Virus record (IMG/VR): IMGVR_UViG_2547132277_000002 | DNA from: a virus | Lineage: Duplodnaviria > Heunggongvirae > Uroviricota > Caudoviricetes | DNA length: 21,851 nt | Strand: one strand, 5' to 3' | Shown: piece after piece, positions 1,025-6,319 of the stretch | Layout of the letters: the number at the start of each line of letters is the position of its first letter | Numbering within the stretch: position 1 is the stretch's first letter | Position numbers and translations under genes: made by a program | The notes under the pieces: model-generated | The model's input: only the letters and a program-made list of their open reading frames with translations | What the model was told of the DNA's origin: nothing | Databases searched by the model: none

Positions 1025-1125
1025 GAGTGTTCCCTTTGTGGTGTAGGAACCTTAAGGAAACAACATGTTGGGTGGAGCGGACAATCCAAATGGTGAATTA
1101 CTGTCTTATATCATTGGCGCTGACA
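1..1125 (-). mobile_element. IS21-family insertion sequence, left-end portion (element continues past window start; istB expected off-window)
   Basis: istA frame runs off the window edge; ~100 bp terminal region 1025-1125 lies upstream of istA; lysozyme homology of the adjacent gene stops abruptly near 1125. Exact IS end not determinable by eye. Confidence 0.65.
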
Positions 1126-1560
1126 ATCTTTTATCCACCAGCGAATCGCCTCGCATGCACCCTTACGATCACCGGCATTCAGCCGCTTATAAAACGTCGA
1201 CGGGAAACACTTACCGGGGCCAATGTTATAGGGACAAAATGACGCTATACCCGCTTTCTGGGGTTCGCTCAATGGCACTTTGATGTTTTTCTCCACCCAT
1301 GCCAGCGCCTTATCACGCTCAATGGCGTTAACCTGGTCGCATTCTTCCTTCGACAGCTTCATTCCCGGTATGACGGGCTTACCATCCACCATTGTGGCAC
1401 CACGACAGATGGTCCATATACCGGAACCATCGCGGTATGCCGTAGTGTGGTTACCCTCTTTTTCATCCAGAAACTGGTCAAGTATTTGAGGAGCAGACGC
1501 GCCTGCAGCAATCAGCGCCAGAACAGCAGCTGACAGGCCGTATTTGATTTTTGCGCTCAT
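1111..1560 (-). pseudogene. Phage SAR-type endolysin (T4-lysozyme-like, GH24), 3-prime end truncated by the IS21-family insertion
   Basis: 149-aa ORF with N-terminal signal-anchor-release stretch YGLSAAVLALIAAGASAP and catalytic E-x8-D-x5-T spacing (E in KEG, D in RDG, T in IWT). Homology to lambdoid prophage lysozymes (RrrD-like, ~165 aa, recalled) ends after ...EAIRWWIKD; the last codons CQRQ-stop read into IS sequence. Confidence 0.7.
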
Positions 1561-1615: not shown

Positions 1616-1930
1616 CTAACAACCCGTAATCGAGTTATCAGAACTGTTAATTTTTATGGTATACCGCGCCTCTGAACAGGGGCGCGTTTCTGGCAACAGC
1701 TCGTCCCCTTCACATAACCCGGCAGCAACATCCAGGAAGACCTGTCTGATGCTCCTTCTGGCTGCTGCCTCATAAAACTCCAGCGCTGCACCTTCAACAC
1801 GGTCCAGCGAGATGTCCAGGTCAAAAATTTCACCGTCAAAGCGTTTTTTGTCCCGTAACGCTAAAGTTACCGTAACTTTATTCTCAAAATTGCGGATCCC
1901 TTTCACAATCAGTTCATAGTTTTGAGTCAT
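1616..1930 (-). CDS. Small phage protein between holin and lysozyme (YdfR-like, DUF1327-like by recollection)
   Basis: 104-aa ORF in the conserved holin / small ORF / lysozyme arrangement of Qin-type lysis cassettes; no recognisable catalytic motif. Confidence 0.5.
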   Translation of the reverse strand: MTQNYELIVKGIRNFENKVTVTLALRDKKRFDGEIFDLDISLDRVEGAALEFYEAAARRSIRQVFLDVAAGLCEGDELLPETRPCSEARYTIKINSSDNSITGC

Positions 1931-1934
1931 TGAA

Positions 1935-2150
1935 TTACTCTCCCCGTGCAGCCTTACGCTTGTCTTCTCTGATTTTGAAGTACAGATTTGTCAGATAAGT
2001 CAGGAAGCCCAGAACCAGACTCCCCAGTACACCAATCGCAGCCCACTGTGACGGACTGACCTGATCAAGCCACTGTAAAAACCAGTAGCCAGCACTGCCT
2101 GCGGAGGTGCCATAGGCAATGCCCGTTGAAATTTTGTCCATGGATTTCAT
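1935..2150 (-). CDS. Holin, lambdoid S-like class II (EssD family)
   Basis: 71-aa ORF with two hydrophobic helices ([19 protein letters not shown]; [23 protein letters not shown]) and a charged C-terminus [13 protein letters not shown]; near-identical to DLP12 EssD as recalled. Confidence 0.8.
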
Positions 2151-2207
2151 AGCCTCACCTCCGCAAATAACGGATGGCGTAGTTTTACACTGAGAAATGA
2201 AAGGGAT

Positions 2208-2236
2208 TTGAAAAGAAAAGCCCGCAAAAGCGGGCG
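2208..2236 (-). terminator. Rho-independent terminator between tRNA array and holin (candidate tR-prime, the target of Q antitermination)
   Basis: Plus-strand GCCCGC-AAAA-GCGGGC hairpin at 2220-2235; on the minus strand it is followed by TTTTCTTTTC. Confidence 0.5.
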
Positions 2237-2310
2237 AAACAATATATACAGTAAGGAAAGCACTCTATCCAACAAACCACCCACAGTTAATCGGAATAAA
2301 AGCAGAGTGC

Positions 2311-2383
2311 TTATGAATGATCGCCTGCCCGAAGGTTAGTATTTCTGCACAGCAATTTTGCAAAAAAAGGCGATCATTCATAA
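2311..2383. repeat. Perfect 15-bp inverted repeat (TTATGAATGATCGCC / GGCGATCATTCATAA) with 43-nt spacer
   Basis: Arms at 2311-2325 and 2369-2383 are exact reverse complements; located between tRNA-Gly and the putative tR-prime. Confidence 0.6.
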
Positions 2384-2442
2384 CTTAAACGTCCTTCAGT
2401 CACTCCGGGATTTCCCATCATCGCAGACTGAAAGACTCTGAC

Positions 2443-2517
<75 letters not shown>

Positions 2518-2520
2518 ATA

Positions 2521-2596
<76 letters not shown>

Positions 2597-2598
2597 AC

Positions 2599-2675
2599 TG
2601 GACCGCCACCGGGGACTCGAACCTCGCACACTCAACTTAAAGAGTTGACGCTCTTTCCTGATGAGCTAGTGGCGG
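2599..2675 (-). tRNA. tRNA of uncertain identity (manual fold gives anticodon UUU, Lys-like, with atypical C at position 33)
   Basis: 77 nt, CCA encoded; acceptor CCGCCAC/GTGGCGG (C1-G72), D-arm GCTC-ATCAGGAAA-GAGC, anticodon stem TCAAC/GTTGA, loop UCUUUAA, T-loop TTCGAGT. Needs tRNAscan-SE. Confidence 0.5.
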
Positions 2676-2676
2676 T

Positions 2677-2752
2677 TGGTGGCCCTTGCTGGATTTGAAC
2701 CAGCGACCTGGCGATTATGAGTCGCTCGCTCTCACCACTGAGCTAAAGGGCC
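2677..2752 (-). tRNA. tRNA with CAU anticodon, ileX/ileZ-like (tRNA-Ile2; elongator Met not excluded)
   Basis: 76 nt, CCA encoded; GGCCCTTTAGCTCAGTGGTGAGAGC...CTCATAA...GGTTCAAATCC...AAGGGCCACCA closely resembles E. coli tRNA-Ile2 as recalled; anticodon loop CUCAUAA. Confidence 0.7.
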
Positions 2753-2761
2753 GGGCGCAGG

Positions 2762-2790
2762 ATAATAACGTTACGAAATCAATGTTGCAA
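2762..2790 (-). promoter_or_regulatory. Sigma70-like promoter driving the tRNA array / late operon (candidate PR-prime)
   Basis: Minus-strand -35 TTGCAA (plus 2785-2790), 17-bp spacer, -10 TATTAT (plus 2762-2767); predicted start just upstream of the first tRNA (5-prime end at 2752). Confidence 0.45.
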
Positions 2791-2871
2791 GCATTCAAAA
2801 ATCACTTGGTTAAAAATCACCCTTATCTCCTCCACCAGCGCATTCACCATGTCTATCCGAGATAAGTGACA

Positions 2872-2894
2872 CAAAAAAACCCGCTTGATGCGGG
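2872..2894 (-). terminator. Hairpin terminator separating the cargo operon from the tRNA/late promoter
   Basis: CCCGC-TTGAT-GCGGG stem-loop at 2880-2894 preceded by an A7 run on plus (T7 after the stem on minus); only TTT follows on the plus strand. Confidence 0.5.
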
Positions 2895-2942
2895 TTTAAG
2901 TTGTGTGGCGAAGCGACCACTCTTAACAGATTAAGATAGTTT

Positions 2943-2972
2943 TTGCGTACGCGTTAGTGATTTTTTCATAAT
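2943..2972 (+). promoter_or_regulatory. Candidate sigma70 promoter for the plus-strand three-gene cargo operon
   Basis: -35 TTGCGT at 2943-2948, 18-bp spacer, -10 CATAAT at 2967-2972, ~45 bp upstream of the probable start codon. Confidence 0.4.
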
Positions 2973-2984
2973 TATCTGTATCCT

Positions 2985-3896
2985 GTGGCTATTTCTCTTG
3001 CGCAAAGGATGCTTTTGATGACGCAGCAACTCGAAAACATGCCAATAACAGAAATCGAAATTGCCTACGGTGGAGAGGCATACGCAGATAATCAGATCGA
3101 CGCGAAAACATTAGGCGAAGCCTTAACCTCTCTTAGTGCCCTGATTGAACACGCCGAAAAAATAATTAATGGCGAAACAGCAGAGCCGAAAGTCAACATC
3201 AAGGCAACAAAAGAAGGTTCATTTACTTTGCTTGTTGCTGTGATGGGGAGCATAAAAACTATTAACGCCCTTGGCCTCGTTGCAGGTGGTGGAGTTGCCG
3301 CAGGTGGCGTACTCGGGATAATCGAATGGCTCAAAGGGCGTAAAATCAGCTCCATTGTCGTCGATGAACAAAAAGATACAGCAGAAATCGAAGTGGATGG
3401 TGAGAAGGTTAAATGCAGTAACGACATTCAAAAATTAATAACCAGTCCAATCATCCGAAAAGAACTGGATAAATTAATCTATAAACCCCTGCAGACTGAA
3501 AAACCATCCACGTTCTCAGTTTCACAGCAGAAGCATAAGGTAGTCAGGGTGACGCAAGCTGAAGCAGTAAGTTTTAAAACTGCAAAATCCACCTTTGTCG
3601 AGAAAACGCACGTAACGACACGCCAAGCTAATGTACATTTTGCTAATGTTCGATTCAAGCAAGGCAAAAGCTGGGATATCATCCTGCCAAATGGCGAAGA
3701 AGTTAGCGCATCTATGAAAGATGAGGCTTTTCTTGAACGGGTTGAACACAACCAAGCAGCATTCTGTAAGGGTGATCTTTTTGTTGTAGAACTGACAGAA
3801 ACAACAAAAGAAACAAATGGCGCGCTGTCTAAACCACGCTATAGTATTACTAAGGTTATACGCCACAGAGCGGCGGCAGATAGGAAACTACTTTAA
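2985..3896 (+). CDS. Cargo gene A: unknown protein with a central Gly-rich hydrophobic segment (probable start ATG 3018, 292 aa)
   Basis: ORF-track start 2985 is GTG; ATG at 3018 has AAGGA 8 nt upstream. Hydrophobic stretch FTLLVAVMGSIKTINALGLVAGGGVAAGGVLGIIEWL; no motif I can assign. Opposite strand to every flanking phage gene. Confidence 0.6.
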   Translation: MAISLAQRMLLMTQQLENMPITEIEIAYGGEAYADNQIDAKTLGEALTSLSALIEHAEKIINGETAEPKVNIKATKEGSFTLLVAVMGSIKTINALGLVAGGGVAAGGVLGIIEWLKGRKISSIVVDEQKDTAEIEVDGEKVKCSNDIQKLITSPIIRKELDKLIYKPLQTEKPSTFSVSQQKHKVVRVTQAEAVSFKTAKSTFVEKTHVTTRQANVHFANVRFKQGKSWDIILPNGEEVSASMKDEAFLERVEHNQAAFCKGDLFVVELTETTKETNGALSKPRYSITKVIRHRAAADRKLL

Positions 3897-3899
3897 ATC

Positions 3900-4145
3900 A
3901 TGTCAATCCTAAGCATTATGCTTTACATCACTGTATTCATGGCTGTCGCAGCGACGGTCAGATATGCTGTGCTTAGGTTCTTGGTTTGGGTAAAGCCGAA
4001 TGCGTATATTGAACTAACCTACACCGATCCTGAAGGCAGAACCGCTAAAAGGAAAGTCAGCGTTAGAAACGAAAATGACGCAGAAGAGTTGGCGCTACTG
4101 CTACGCGAACTCAAAACTCGCAACGAAGCAAGTGCAGGAAGGTGA
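3900..4145 (+). CDS. Cargo gene B: small protein with N-terminal transmembrane helix and charged C-terminus
   Basis: 81 aa; ILSIMLYITVFMAVAATVRYAVLRFLVWV hydrophobic; starts 4 nt after gene A stop. Confidence 0.55.
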   Translation: MSILSIMLYITVFMAVAATVRYAVLRFLVWVKPNAYIELTYTDPEGRTAKRKVSVRNENDAEELALLLRELKTRNEASAGR

Positions 4146-4532
4146 ATGGCGAACACTAAATCCTACCTGGCAATGCAGGCATGGTTTACCACCCTTATCA
4201 CTGCGGGATTGAATTTCCTTTTTGACTGGCTTCCTCAATTAGCCTTCTTCAAATCATTGGCGCCTGGAGCTGCTGTCGGCTTATCTCATGTGGTAATTCT
4301 TCTTATCGCTTACATAGGTTTGCCTACGCTTAATGATGTAAGAATGAAAAGGGAAATAAAAACGGCCAGAAAATTCATCACGAACTGCCTGGCCAACCCT
4401 AACCTAACACCAGACCAAATTGCGCACTACAACCAATGTCTTATCGATCTAGACAATAAGCTATTAAAAAACATAAATATTCGTATTGATGCTTTATCTG
4501 ACGCCGAATCGAAAGCTCAAGCAAACGAGTAG
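4146..4532 (+). CDS. Cargo gene C: predicted membrane protein (two hydrophobic helices) with a soluble C-terminal ~70 aa
   Basis: 128 aa; TGA-ATG junction with gene B; SD GGAAGGTGA upstream; helices WFTTLITAGLNFLFDWL and AAVGLSHVVILLIAYIGL. Confidence 0.6.
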   Translation: MANTKSYLAMQAWFTTLITAGLNFLFDWLPQLAFFKSLAPGAAVGLSHVVILLIAYIGLPTLNDVRMKREIKTARKFITNCLANPNLTPDQIAHYNQCLIDLDNKLLKNINIRIDALSDAESKAQANE

Positions 4533-4545
4533 TAACAGTCATAAC

Positions 4546-4902
4546 TTATGATAGAATCAAGCATATACATCCATCAATAAAGCCTAATGCAGTTTGCAGC
4601 TCCTTTCTTATAGTTCCATCTGAGCACCTGCGTTTCTTCGCGATTGAGCGTAGAGAAACACCAATAACAAAGTGAGCTATGAGCAGCTCATATTCCTCTG
4701 GTTTATACTTTCGCAACCGAGCCACACAACCGTCTATCATGATGCCTTCATCATCATCACACTGGAGACGTGACTTTTTGCCATGTGGCAAAAGCCTCTT
4801 GAAGCCCGCTGCTATCGGTTGCCAATCGACACCGCTATTTTCTGCTGCAGCCCATGCCCCCCAGCGATCTAAAACCTCATACATATCACGCCCCATTACC
4901 AT
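4546..4902 (-). CDS. Late-gene antiterminator Q (phage 21 / DLP12 QuuD-like family)
   Basis: 118 aa; motifs VLDRWGAWAA, IAAGFK, Cys-rich segments; conserved position downstream of rusA; resembles QuuD-type Q as recalled. Confidence 0.7.
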   Translation of the reverse strand: MVMGRDMYEVLDRWGAWAAAENSGVDWQPIAAGFKRLLPHGKKSRLQCDDDEGIMIDGCVARLRKYKPEEYELLIAHFVIGVSLRSIAKKRRCSDGTIRKELQTALGFIDGCICLILS

Positions 4903-5257
4903 CGCCTCTGATTTCGCAAATCTTCACGCCCAGCCGCCCACCAGGAACGAGCTGACCGCGCACAATATTGATTTCATCAAACTGCTCGTCGTCTATAAGT
5001 AGTCCGGCATGCGTCAGCGCATCCAGTGGTGCCTTCAGGATATTGTCCAGGTCGCGGCGGCGCTTATCCGGTGGCTCTGCAATCACCTTTATCGCCAGCC
5101 TTCCGGACAGGCTTAATTTCAGCCGCTGCTGGCGAACAATAAGCGCCACAGCCCGGCGATAACGCTTTCCCTCCTCCGAGATAAAATATGTGCTGCCACG
5201 GCGTCGCCAGTAAGTGTTCACCGTCGGCGGGTAAGGTAAAACCAAATCTATGAGCAT
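4886..5257 (-). CDS. rusA: Holliday-junction resolvase RusA
   Basis: 123 aa; PYPPTVNTYW... and RRRDLDN motif typical of RusA; nin-region position upstream of Q. Confidence 0.8.
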   Translation of the reverse strand: MLIDLVLPYPPTVNTYWRRRGSTYFISEEGKRYRRAVALIVRQQRLKLSLSGRLAIKVIAEPPDKRRRDLDNILKAPLDALTHAGLLIDDEQFDEINIVRGQLVPGGRLGVKICEIRGDGNGA

Positions 5258-5269
5258 CAGTCACCTCTT

Positions 5270-6319
5270 TTACCCAAGCACGCCAGTTGCAAAGGCGTGA
5301 TCAAGAAAACGAAAAATTAAATCAACCTGAGAACCATGCTTTTCTTCGAACGCCAGCGGATCCGCATGAAGCTCGTTGTGATGCTCCCGACACAGCGGTA
5401 GCGTGAAAATATCGTGAGATTTTGTCCCCATTCCGCCCTGACCATGACCAATCAGGTGATGGGGATCGTCGGCTGGCTTACCACAACACGCACACGGCTG
5501 TGTCTTCACCCAGCGAGTGTATTTCTCGTTAACCCAGCGGCGACGTTTAGGTCGTTTCATGAAAGATTCCGGAGACTCAGGATCAACGGCAATGCTGACC
5601 ACCGTCTTTTCCTGTGGTGGGTTCTGTTGCTGGTGGGCGTGAGGCAGCGGCGCAAGATTTTTTGTGCGCTGTTTCAGTATGCTGGTGGCGGTCTGCTCTC
5701 CCGGTACGATGTCGCTTTCACGGTACATGGAGCGGATTTTTTCCACACGCAACCCCAGCGAACGACGTAATACCGCTTCCGGTAGCGCGTCCGCCACCTG
5801 ATTGCGGACCGCCCACCAGGATAATTCAGCCAGAGATAATTCACGCTCCTGCGTACCGCTTATTGCGTGACCGATGACGTCAATCATCCATGCTGACAGG
5901 TTTTGATGAGCAAGTTGCTCGAGTGATTCGGATGTCTGGTCACGCAGCTGGTTGTCGCAGTGCCAGCACAACACCATTGCGCCGGTACCATAACGGTGAA
6001 TGACGGTTTCGCTGTGATGATAATCGCCGTGTGGCCACTGGCAGGATTTAATATGGCGCAACAGCCAGTCAGACAATGCACCAGCACCACCAGCAGCACG
6101 AATCACCCGCTCATCGCTGAAAAATGGCAGTAATGATTTATCCTCCGCCAGCGGCTGGCGAACGGCAGGAACGACCCCGGACGGCAGACCGCGCATGCTT
6201 TTTGGCTCCGGTTCAACCAGCACTCTGCCGTTATGGAATACCTGCATGGATTCACGACCTGGCTTAACGATAACCACCCCAAGTTCCGGCACCAGAACAG
6301 GTCGAAGTAATACCCGCAC
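5270..6319 (-). CDS. DUF968-family nin-region protein (YdfU-like)
   Basis: 349 aa; C-terminal Cys/His-rich block QPCACCGKPADDPHHLIGHGQGGMGTKSHD...CREHHNELH recalled as DUF968 of Qin-type prophages. Confidence 0.65.
   Translation of the reverse strand: MRVLLRPVLVPELGVVIVKPGRESMQVFHNGRVLVEPEPKSMRGLPSGVVPAVRQPLAEDKSLLPFFSDERVIRAAGGAGALSDWLLRHIKSCQWPHGDYHHSETVIHRYGTGAMVLCWHCDNQLRDQTSESLEQLAHQNLSAWMIDVIGHAISGTQERELSLAELSWWAVRNQVADALPEAVLRRSLGLRVEKIRSMYRESDIVPGEQTATSILKQRTKNLAPLPHAHQQQNPPQEKTVVSIAVDPESPESFMKRPKRRRWVNEKYTRWVKTQPCACCGKPADDPHHLIGHGQGGMGTKSHDIFTLPLCREHHNELHADPLAFEEKHGSQVDLIFRFLDHAFATGVLG

Follow-up and report, generated by a model that had tools for sequence, protein, structure and literature searches.

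In lambdoid phages, the gene for the late antiterminator Q is as a rule immediately followed by the late promoter, PR' (PMC6606751; bioRxiv 10.1101/651190). A 21,851-nucleotide (nt) stretch of Caudoviricetes DNA, IMG/VR virus record IMGVR_UViG_2547132277_000002 (referred to here as the window), is arranged differently. Its Q gene is not immediately followed by PR'; the Q stop codon (4546) is separated by 1,589 nt and three convergent genes from an invariant sequence block (ending at 2956). This block is part of what, judged by its sequence, is the true late-control cassette, located at 2972-2871 on the minus strand. The best explanation, with a probability of roughly 80%, is that the window carries a late antitermination system of the Q21/Q933W/QuuD type, the halves of which have been pushed apart by a slot for cargo genes. 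The original prediction, made from the same DNA, held that the stops of Q and of the last cargo gene (4532) lie 13 bp apart and that the late promoter and its qut site cannot directly follow Q as in lambda. Both statements are borne out. The spacer is exactly 13 nt (4533-4545), and the late promoter, some 1.6 kb away from the Q stop, is placed on the far side of the convergent cargo. The site it proposed for that promoter, 2762-2790, has to be given up in favor of the cassette at 2972-2871.

How would such a divided system operate? Q would be made from the early-right operon and, as a diffusible protein, would act on the compact cassette some 1.6 kb downstream. Transcription from PR' would begin in the TAAGAGTGG motif and encounter a terminator, consisting of a hairpin and seven U residues, about 45 nt later. 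As long as Q is absent, PR' would give rise to no more than a short leader RNA. Once Q is present, polymerase would pass the hairpin, the tRNA unit, and the 2235-2220 terminator and go on to transcribe the genes for holin, lysozyme, and other late functions. The cargo would be driven by a promoter of its own (2943-2972, plus strand) that fires away from PR' and has its -35 inside the invariant block. The observations on which this scheme is built are gene identities, their geometry, sequence conservation, linkage of the cassette to one clade of Q, and homology to an experimentally mapped PR'.

The identity of Q is clear. Its open reading frame (ORF) scores 151.6 bits against PF06530, above the curated cutoff of 26, and both QuuD of the Escherichia coli K-12 prophage DLP12 and Q of phage Min27 match the same model. 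QuuD is 50% identical to the window protein, while Q21 (structures 6P18 and 6JNX) is a distant relative with a weak sequence match (E = 1.4e-3). There are also weak matches to sequence models of extracytoplasmic function (ECF) sigma factors. Antiterminators of the Q21/Q933W type are characterized by a sigma-R4-like helix-turn-helix fold, with which they contact their DNA element, and by a torus at the RNA exit channel. What might this Q recognize? The 16-nt block TAACGCGTACGCAAAA contains the palindrome GCGTACGC and overlaps the -35 regions of both divergent promoters. It tracks the divergence of Q, reading TTTACGTACGTAAAAA with QuuD and TTTACGATCGTAAAAA with the 43% identical Q933W-type proteins. 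Where Q belongs to PF03589, the block is missing, as is the whole cassette upstream of the same late module. The block is named here as a candidate Q-binding element (QBE). The QBE of Q21 sits between the -35 and -10 (PMC6606751), and the window block likewise lies upstream of -10-like elements. The Q21 site is a TGAGCA direct repeat, however, whereas the window candidate is a palindrome.

The linkage between cassette and Q was followed with an nhmmer profile built from four copies of the cassette. All 36 first-round loci, which include 32 genome loci from Enterobacterales genera such as Yersinia, Serratia, Erwinia, Klebsiella, and Providencia, have a single cassette each, which shares the strand of Q and lies downstream of it. 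One cassette each was also detected in 74 of 80 viral contigs, and in five of the six contigs without one, the sequence following Q is shorter than 1.6 kb. Overall, 113 loci carry it. In most loci the cassette is followed by holin, lysozyme, and Rz genes, and in the Shiga toxin (Stx) phages Stx1_499 and Stx2a_WGPS2 by stx1AB or stx2AB. The cassette matches 3,701 of 5,426 complete E. coli genomes, in which it is unannotated. In a cargo-less E. coli relative with the same Q clade (L003), the conserved cassette of about 100 nt begins 19 nt after an identical Q stop codon, while in two others (L004 and L005) it lies just past convergent cargo. Right after the cassette, at 2549-3277 and 1991-2416, L003 has genes for an ADP-ribosyltransferase and the B subunit of a subtilase-family AB5 toxin; this pair occupies, in the late transcript, the position of stx in Stx phages.

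Experimental anchoring comes from the Stx phages. The Min27 and Sakai Stx2 phages, which have a PF06530-type Q, carry a homologous cassette at the Q stop, and the 933W-type Q gene ends inside it (TTTACGATCGTAAAAA...TATCATGATAAGAGTGGTTAC...hairpin plus U7). Sy et al. mapped the Sakai PR' start and the 3' end of the StxS RNA 257 nt apart by differential RNA sequencing (dRNA-seq) and Term-seq (PMC7547250). The published coordinates refer to an older genome version; the 257-nt distance alone was used, which places the start to within about 3 nt on either side. Provided that this 3' end belongs to the second terminator's U tract, the start is placed inside the shared ATAAGAG motif, just after TATCAT. 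The -10 region of the window (2928-2938) is homologous to this TATCAT, just upstream of the mapped Stx2 start region. By homology, the window PR' would start at about 2923-2920, with TAATCT as its -10. The predicted PR' as a whole rests on this homology, on the TAnnnT hexamer found in every distinct copy, and on the lysis genes downstream. The Stx PR'-tR' regions of 933W, Sakai Sp5, and Min27 share with the window the palindromic block, TATCAT or its equivalent, GATAAGAGTGGTTAC, the hairpin with U7, and, farther downstream, a homologous tRNA promoter; in these phages PR' start and tR' have been mapped experimentally (PMC7547250). They differ in that cassette and Q stop codon overlap and cargo is absent between them, the 258-nt leader ends at a second terminator that the window lacks, and the 933W-type Q has 144 amino acids (aa) rather than 118.

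The layout also recalls lambda, in which Q, PR', qut, and tR' (the source of 6S RNA) likewise combine a constitutive promoter, promoter-proximal control elements, a terminator, and then the late genes. The common family form TAAGAGTGGTTACTTCGC resembles the pause-inducing initial transcribed sequence of lambda, matching AACGATGGGTTAATTCGC from +1 at 13 of 18 positions; the sequence of the window itself matches at 11 of 18 (both hand counts). The TGnTAAGAGTGGT/TAAGAGTGG motif is put forward as a candidate for a sigma-dependent pause or Q-loading determinant. No other conserved -10-like element was found downstream of TAAGAGTGG in the family cassettes. Unlike the window, lambda and phage 21, whose Q is the distant homologue mentioned above, have Q and PR' adjacent, and the lambda leader is 194 nt long versus about 45 nt.

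The leader region ends in the hairpin at the tR' position. A 55-nt leader folds at -19.8 kcal/mol (z = -3.4), and 26 of the 36 family cassettes tested have a hairpin plus U tract at a dG of -7 or lower. Together with the second terminator at 2235-2220, the window hairpin (2897-2873) makes up the predicted intrinsic terminators between PR' and the late genes. The first 20 or so nt of the predicted leader (2920-2905, minus strand) could also form a 5-bp stem, GUGGU...GCCAC. As a conserved structure, this 5' stem-loop (GUGGU...RCCAC) is at most tentative: its 86% pairing over 43 variants comes almost wholly from sequence conservation, with only 4 compensatory cells, and the two cannot be told apart. 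A scan of 1900-5300 with Rfam gave tRNAs as its sole matches and no family over the cassette. RefSeq annotates a 36-aa "antiterminator" coding sequence here (WP_099524307.1; 2810-2920, minus strand) that covers the cassette hairpin and the segment shared downstream. It was judged spurious, having no family match and no similarity to the Q of the PF03589-type prophage L002. The features of the region are collected in Table 1.

Table 1. Features of the late-control region and its surroundings in the window (promoter, terminator, and binding-site entries are predictions)
Feature	Position	Strand	Basis or remark
Invariant 16-nt block TAACGCGTACGCAAAA, candidate Q-binding element	2941-2956	-	Near-invariant in 37 distinct cassettes from many genera
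PR' -10, TAATCT	2933-2928	-	TAnnnT conserved in 37/37 distinct copies
Second, overlapping -10-like hexamer, TATCTT	2938-2933	-	TAnnnT in 22/37
Invariant motif TGnTAAGAGTGGT, holding the inferred PR' start (~2923-2920)	2916-2928	-	>90% conserved
Hairpin at tR' position, AAACCCGC-ATCAA-GCGGGTTT, plus run of 7 U	2873-2897	-	dG -11.7
Predicted cargo promoter, -35 TTGCGT (2943-2948), 18-nt spacer, -10 CATAAT (2967-2972)	2943-2972	+	Pattern, conservation
tRNA-operon promoter, TTGCAA-17-TATTAT, GC-rich discriminator CCTGCGCCC	2762-2790	-	Ends ~9 nt before the tRNA at 2752
Four tRNA genes: CAT (Met/Ile2-type), Lys, Thr, Gly	2443-2752	-	ARAGORN, Rfam tRNA
Second intrinsic terminator, at the end of the tRNA unit and before the holin gene	2220-2235	-	GCCCGC-TTTT-GCGGGC plus T run
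First late (lysis) gene, S21-type holin	1935-2150	-	PF04971, E = 1.4e-35
YdfR-like gene, after holin	1616-1930	-	PF07041
Lysozyme gene, after YdfR-like gene	1111-1560	-	PF00959
Cargo gene 1, 292 aa, candidate defense protein	3018-3896	+	PADLOC PDC-S42, E = 2.8e-53
Cargo gene 2, 81 aa, N-terminal hydrophobic helix	3900-4145	+	PHROG 27630, E = 8e-57
Cargo gene 3, 128 aa, hydrophobic N-terminal half	4146-4532	+	PHROG 26468, E = 6.7e-89
Spacer (13 nt) between convergent stops of Q and last cargo gene	4533-4545		Sequence
Q antiterminator gene, 118 aa, Q21/Q933W/QuuD family	4546-4902	-	PF06530, E = 1.1e-44; PHROG 79
RusA gene	4886-5257	-	Lambdoid early-right region
DUF968 gene	5270-6319	-	Upstream of Q, lambdoid early-right region

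Several points weigh against this reading. Conservation of the block could be explained solely by its role as the -35 of the cargo promoter. The PR' of the window Q clade has no recognizable -35 (TAACGC stands in its place), and because two -10-like hexamers overlap, its start can be placed only to within about 5 nt. If transcription starts at the A of TAAGAG, the usual distance from a -10, then TAAGAG would occupy -4 to +2, which matches no characterized position of a sigma-dependent pause. The role of the hairpin is also in some doubt. The 258-nt StxS RNA of Stx phages begins before the homologous hairpin and passes through it, so the window hairpin may be a leaky terminator or have another role; either termination at the Stx hairpin is only partial or very short RNAs escaped detection. 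(The Stx2 counterpart, with its U7, lies at 2986-3012 of L042 and is also present in L043, Sakai Sp5.) One IMG/VR contig among the loci examined, L115, stands alone in lacking a detectable cassette even though roughly 5 kb follow its close Q homologue. The loci share ancestry and are not phylogenetically independent, so their counts overstate the number of independent events. Finally, for both this prophage and the Q clade, Q binding, pausing, hairpin efficiency, and cargo promoter activity are all read from DNA sequence.

Could the late promoter lie elsewhere? The original prediction put it, together with qut, at 2762-2790, just past a terminator that would stop early read-through. The site does have a sigma70-like TTGCAA-17-TATTAT match (9/12), and both its strand and its place between the cargo and the lysis genes would suit a late promoter. 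Such matches, however, occur at chance frequency in this region (4 found in 1900-5300 versus 4.9 +/- 2.4 expected). Moreover, the window from 2884 downward, with this site, the tRNAs, and the holin gene, is 98% identical to prophage L002, the Q of which (273 aa) belongs to the non-homologous lambda-Q family PF03589. L002 has the identical promoter at this site, and ahead of the shared half-terminator it carries a lambda-like PR' of its own (TAAATT...AAAGATGGG). Because it is common to two unrelated Q types, 2762-2790 cannot hold a Q-specific binding site; the element conserved with the window Q clade is the one at 2972-2871. The site ends close to a tRNA gene and has a GC-rich discriminator, and Q would meet no terminator to overcome on the way from it to the tRNAs. 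In the Min27 and Sakai Stx2 phages, the homologous TTGCAG-17-TATTAT-CCTGCGCCC stands before ileZ, near which dRNA-seq found a primary start that appears to drive the tRNAs (PMC7547250). By all indications, then, this is the tRNA-operon promoter of the downstream module, and it would be very surprising if it proved to be the late promoter. The terminator that had been proposed near 2872-2894 survives as a structure, in that a hairpin and U tract are present at 2897-2873, but not in the role given to it: it is not a barrier ahead of the promoter but part of the PR' cassette, at the tR' position.

A second location, inside the 3' end of Q, would have Q-modified polymerase run antisense through the cargo to the lysis genes. 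A 9/12 promoter-like match on the minus strand (TTGATG-18-TATCAT, 4577-4548) ends 2 nt before the Q stop, and an overlap between PR' cassette and Q 3' end does exist in Q933W-type phages. The match is again at chance level, though, and has no similarity to the conserved cassette. L003 has the same Q 3' end and its cassette follows the stop codon rather than lying within Q, and DNA homology with most related Q genes ends 20 to 30 nt before the gene does. This placement is as improbable as the preceding one. Slightly more room, but still very little, can be given to the idea that the layout is debris of a defective prophage, in which Q and cassette are uncoupled and the cassette serves only as the upstream region of the cargo or as a terminator. 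A database record 100% identical over window positions 2150-5260 does have an IS21-family element in its lysis module, and DLP12, with the same layout, is defective. Yet the same gene order occurs in complete Stx1 and Stx2 phage genomes. Since an intact Q ORF and the invariant block recur in 25 viral architectures and in prophages of many genera, the pair would appear to be under purifying selection. A divided but working Q system, with its PR' cassette at 2972-2871, accounts best for these observations.

Some side observations concern the tRNA unit and its borders. The cluster, which has its own promoter (2790-2762) and its own terminator (2235-2220), is CAT-Lys-Thr-Gly, versus the ileZ-argN-argO set of Stx phages. 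Its first gene (2677-2752, minus strand) is called Met (anticodon CAT) by ARAGORN and tRNA-Ile (ileZ-like) by RefSeq. The homology break between prophages with PF06530-type and PF03589-type Q falls inside the terminator hairpin, at 2884 in the window and about 2233 in L002. Each Q type comes with a promoter of its own and with the hairpin's 5' half, and the 3' half with the U tract belongs to the shared late module.

What, then, fills the space between Q and PR'? The minus strand of the window is a lambdoid early-right-to-late region. Compared with L003, it has a 1,573-bp insertion directly after TAAGTTATGA. The insertion is bounded by a 6-bp direct repeat, TTATGA (4544-4539 and 2971-2966, read on the minus strand), which could be a target-site duplication or microhomology; the left copy lies within the palindrome TCATAAGTTATGA. 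The 13-nt spacer is part of this palindrome, which takes in the Q stop codon, and no terminator-like hairpin was found in it. The same geometry is seen across the family. With a single exception among 25 viral and 33 genomic architectures, 0.6 to 3 kb of mostly convergent cargo lies between Q and cassette. The distance between the stops of Q and cargo is typically -12 to +50 nt, and the first cargo start codon is typically 30 to 90 nt from the block. The 32 genome loci hold about 20 unrelated cargo clusters. In the 25 architectures of the viral contigs, 50 of 54 cargo ORFs are convergent with Q, and in one architecture only is Q adjacent to the cassette. PADLOC and other model matches among the cargo include Kiwa KwaA/KwaB, PD-Lambda-5 A/B, NsnA/NsnB, PDC-M53/M55, methyltransferases, GmrSD, and HEPN proteins. 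Contents thus differ, with known anti-phage systems in some loci, a candidate model (PDC-S42) in the window, and a porin in DLP12. Taken together, the 1.57-kb segment from the Q stop to the cassette appears to be a recurrent insertion slot for convergent, lysogen-expressed cargo, mostly putative anti-phage defense.

Prophage defense hotspots are known from P2 and P4, in which conserved flanks surround highly variable defense cargo (PMC9519451). The Q-to-PR' gap has the same hallmarks, namely conserved flanks and variable, unrelated cargo, with tight boundaries. It differs in belonging to another type of phage and in that its flanks are a regulator gene and that regulator's own DNA target. No description of the gap as a defense hotspot was found in the literature searched, which is no proof of absence. 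The arrangement itself has precedents, of which the window is a new instance. The Stx1a phage Stx1_499 (LC567825) and the Stx2a phage WGPS2 (AP012537) have a Q 86 to 91% identical to that of the window, followed by two or three convergent genes, the cassette, and the late genes. Unlike in the window, the cargo genes are others and the late transcript bears stx.

DLP12 provides a further parallel, with a Q of the same Pfam family and the convergent porin gene nmpC between Q and the lysis cassette. Its order is quuD (ybcQ), nmpC, the homologous cassette (NC_000913.3, 577199-577278, about 120 nt before essD), and then essD/rrrD/rzpD. PMC7918800 cites a report of Q-type, Q-dependent control of the DLP12 lysis cassette. 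In contrast to the window, the cargo is a porin gene interrupted by IS5 rather than a defense candidate, the block is the TTTACGTACGTAAAAA variant, there is no tRNA cluster, and, with about 390 nt between the block and the start of nmpC, there is no obvious case for nmpC expression from the divergent promoter. The published DLP12 reporter fragment said to begin at -121 starts at position 5754 of L038, the DLP12 locus, and its RpoE-dependent "+1" is at about 5875, beside the nmpC start. Lying about 325 bp upstream of the Q-type cassette, this "+1" was rejected as the DLP12 PR' start and is a different promoter; the DLP12 lysis genes may have two separate upstream promoters. Tables of E. coli 3' ends have no essD, nmpC, or quuD entry.

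The cargo of the window itself consists of three tightly packed plus-strand genes (3018-4532) between Q and the tRNAs, convergent with Q. Gene 1 also matches NCBIfam NF053583 (LAPAL_fam, E = 8.9e-67) and PHROG 3243, and its RefSeq start at 3018 has AAGGA 8 nt upstream. Gene 2 starts 3 nt past the gene 1 stop and is unannotated in the RefSeq record identical over 2150-5260, and the start of gene 3 overlaps the gene 2 stop (TGAATG). Both have PHROG matches only; gene 3 has no match in Pfam, PADLOC, or NCBIfam. The operon may be described as a PDC-S42 candidate with two small predicted membrane proteins, a defense role being putative. Its GC content is 0.41 to 0.46, versus 0.52 to 0.56 in the flanks. 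No plus-strand terminator is predicted for the cargo transcripts, which may therefore run antisense into Q in the lysogen.

How might this cargo be expressed? The predicted promoter at 2943-2972 would leave a leader of about 38 nt before the ATG at 3018. Of 57 distinct cargo-side flanks read on the cargo strand, 33 have TAnnnT at a distance of exactly 17 nt from TTGCGT, against a background of about 1.4 per position and a maximum of 6, and A-11/T-7 are found at 16 to 18 nt in 47 of the 57 flanks versus 10 to 20 at shifted control positions. The cargo promoter and PR' would thus stand back to back, with both -35 regions in the same 16 nt. One speculation is that the block is a shared two-way switch, the Q-loading site of PR' on one strand and the cargo -35 (TTGCGT) on the other. 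If the block is a QBE, it follows that Q bound there would turn on the late genes and occlude the cargo promoter at once. This idea is tentative and, for the present, rather doubtful.

Another route to silencing takes up the antisense shut-off suggested in the original prediction. Here, transcription that runs from the early-right operon past the Q stop would be the main cause of cargo silencing in the lytic phase, through antisense read-through or polymerase collision. The convergent stops are 13 nt apart, such a tight junction is a family-wide feature, and no convincing minus-strand terminator was found between 4545 and 2985. Antisense control of prophage defense genes is also known elsewhere, as in phi80, in which TaiEcA drops on Q expression (PMC11364771), and in Staphylococcus aureus phage 80alpha (PMC11087260). 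Given these precedents and the lack of a convincing terminator, early antisense read-through is plausible, and it is compatible with the corrected position of the promoter. On the other side, a transcript past the Q stop would be untranslated and Rho may terminate it early, and the annotation of the matching record shows no N-like antiterminator. (GC skew was also considered as a stand-in for Rho loading on the antisense cargo RNA; its signal was weak and is left out of account.) Furthermore, late Q-dependent transcription would start past the cargo and never cross it, unlike in phi80. The phi80 taiEcA gene and the S. aureus tha/ith "noncontiguous operon" resemble the window in that a lysogen-expressed defense gene opposes lytic transcription, but there the defense gene lies inside, and is crossed by, the late or cI transcription unit. 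The window cargo, lying upstream of PR', could be crossed only by early read-through. As the main means of silencing, read-through is a possibility, though less likely than not.

What do these findings mean for the phages concerned? The late promoter of a widespread clade of Q would be an unannotated cassette of about 100 bp, one that appears to drive stx in Shiga toxin phages, and in prophages with a gene-free-looking junction after Q, absence of the late promoter should not be assumed. If the two-way switch is real, prophage defense would be turned off when it could harm the phage's own lytic cycle, and the Q-to-PR' gap would act as a plug-in socket giving lysogeny-specific expression to any inserted defense system, which would then need no regulator of its own. 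The overlap between the cargo promoter and the candidate Q site offers a testable idea for how prophages avoid autoimmunity on induction. The slot is compact and sharply bounded, and it seems to collect anti-phage systems and other lysogen-expressed genes across the Enterobacterales, Stx phages included. It could accordingly be used as an anchor in the search for new defense candidates, such as the three-gene operon of the window.

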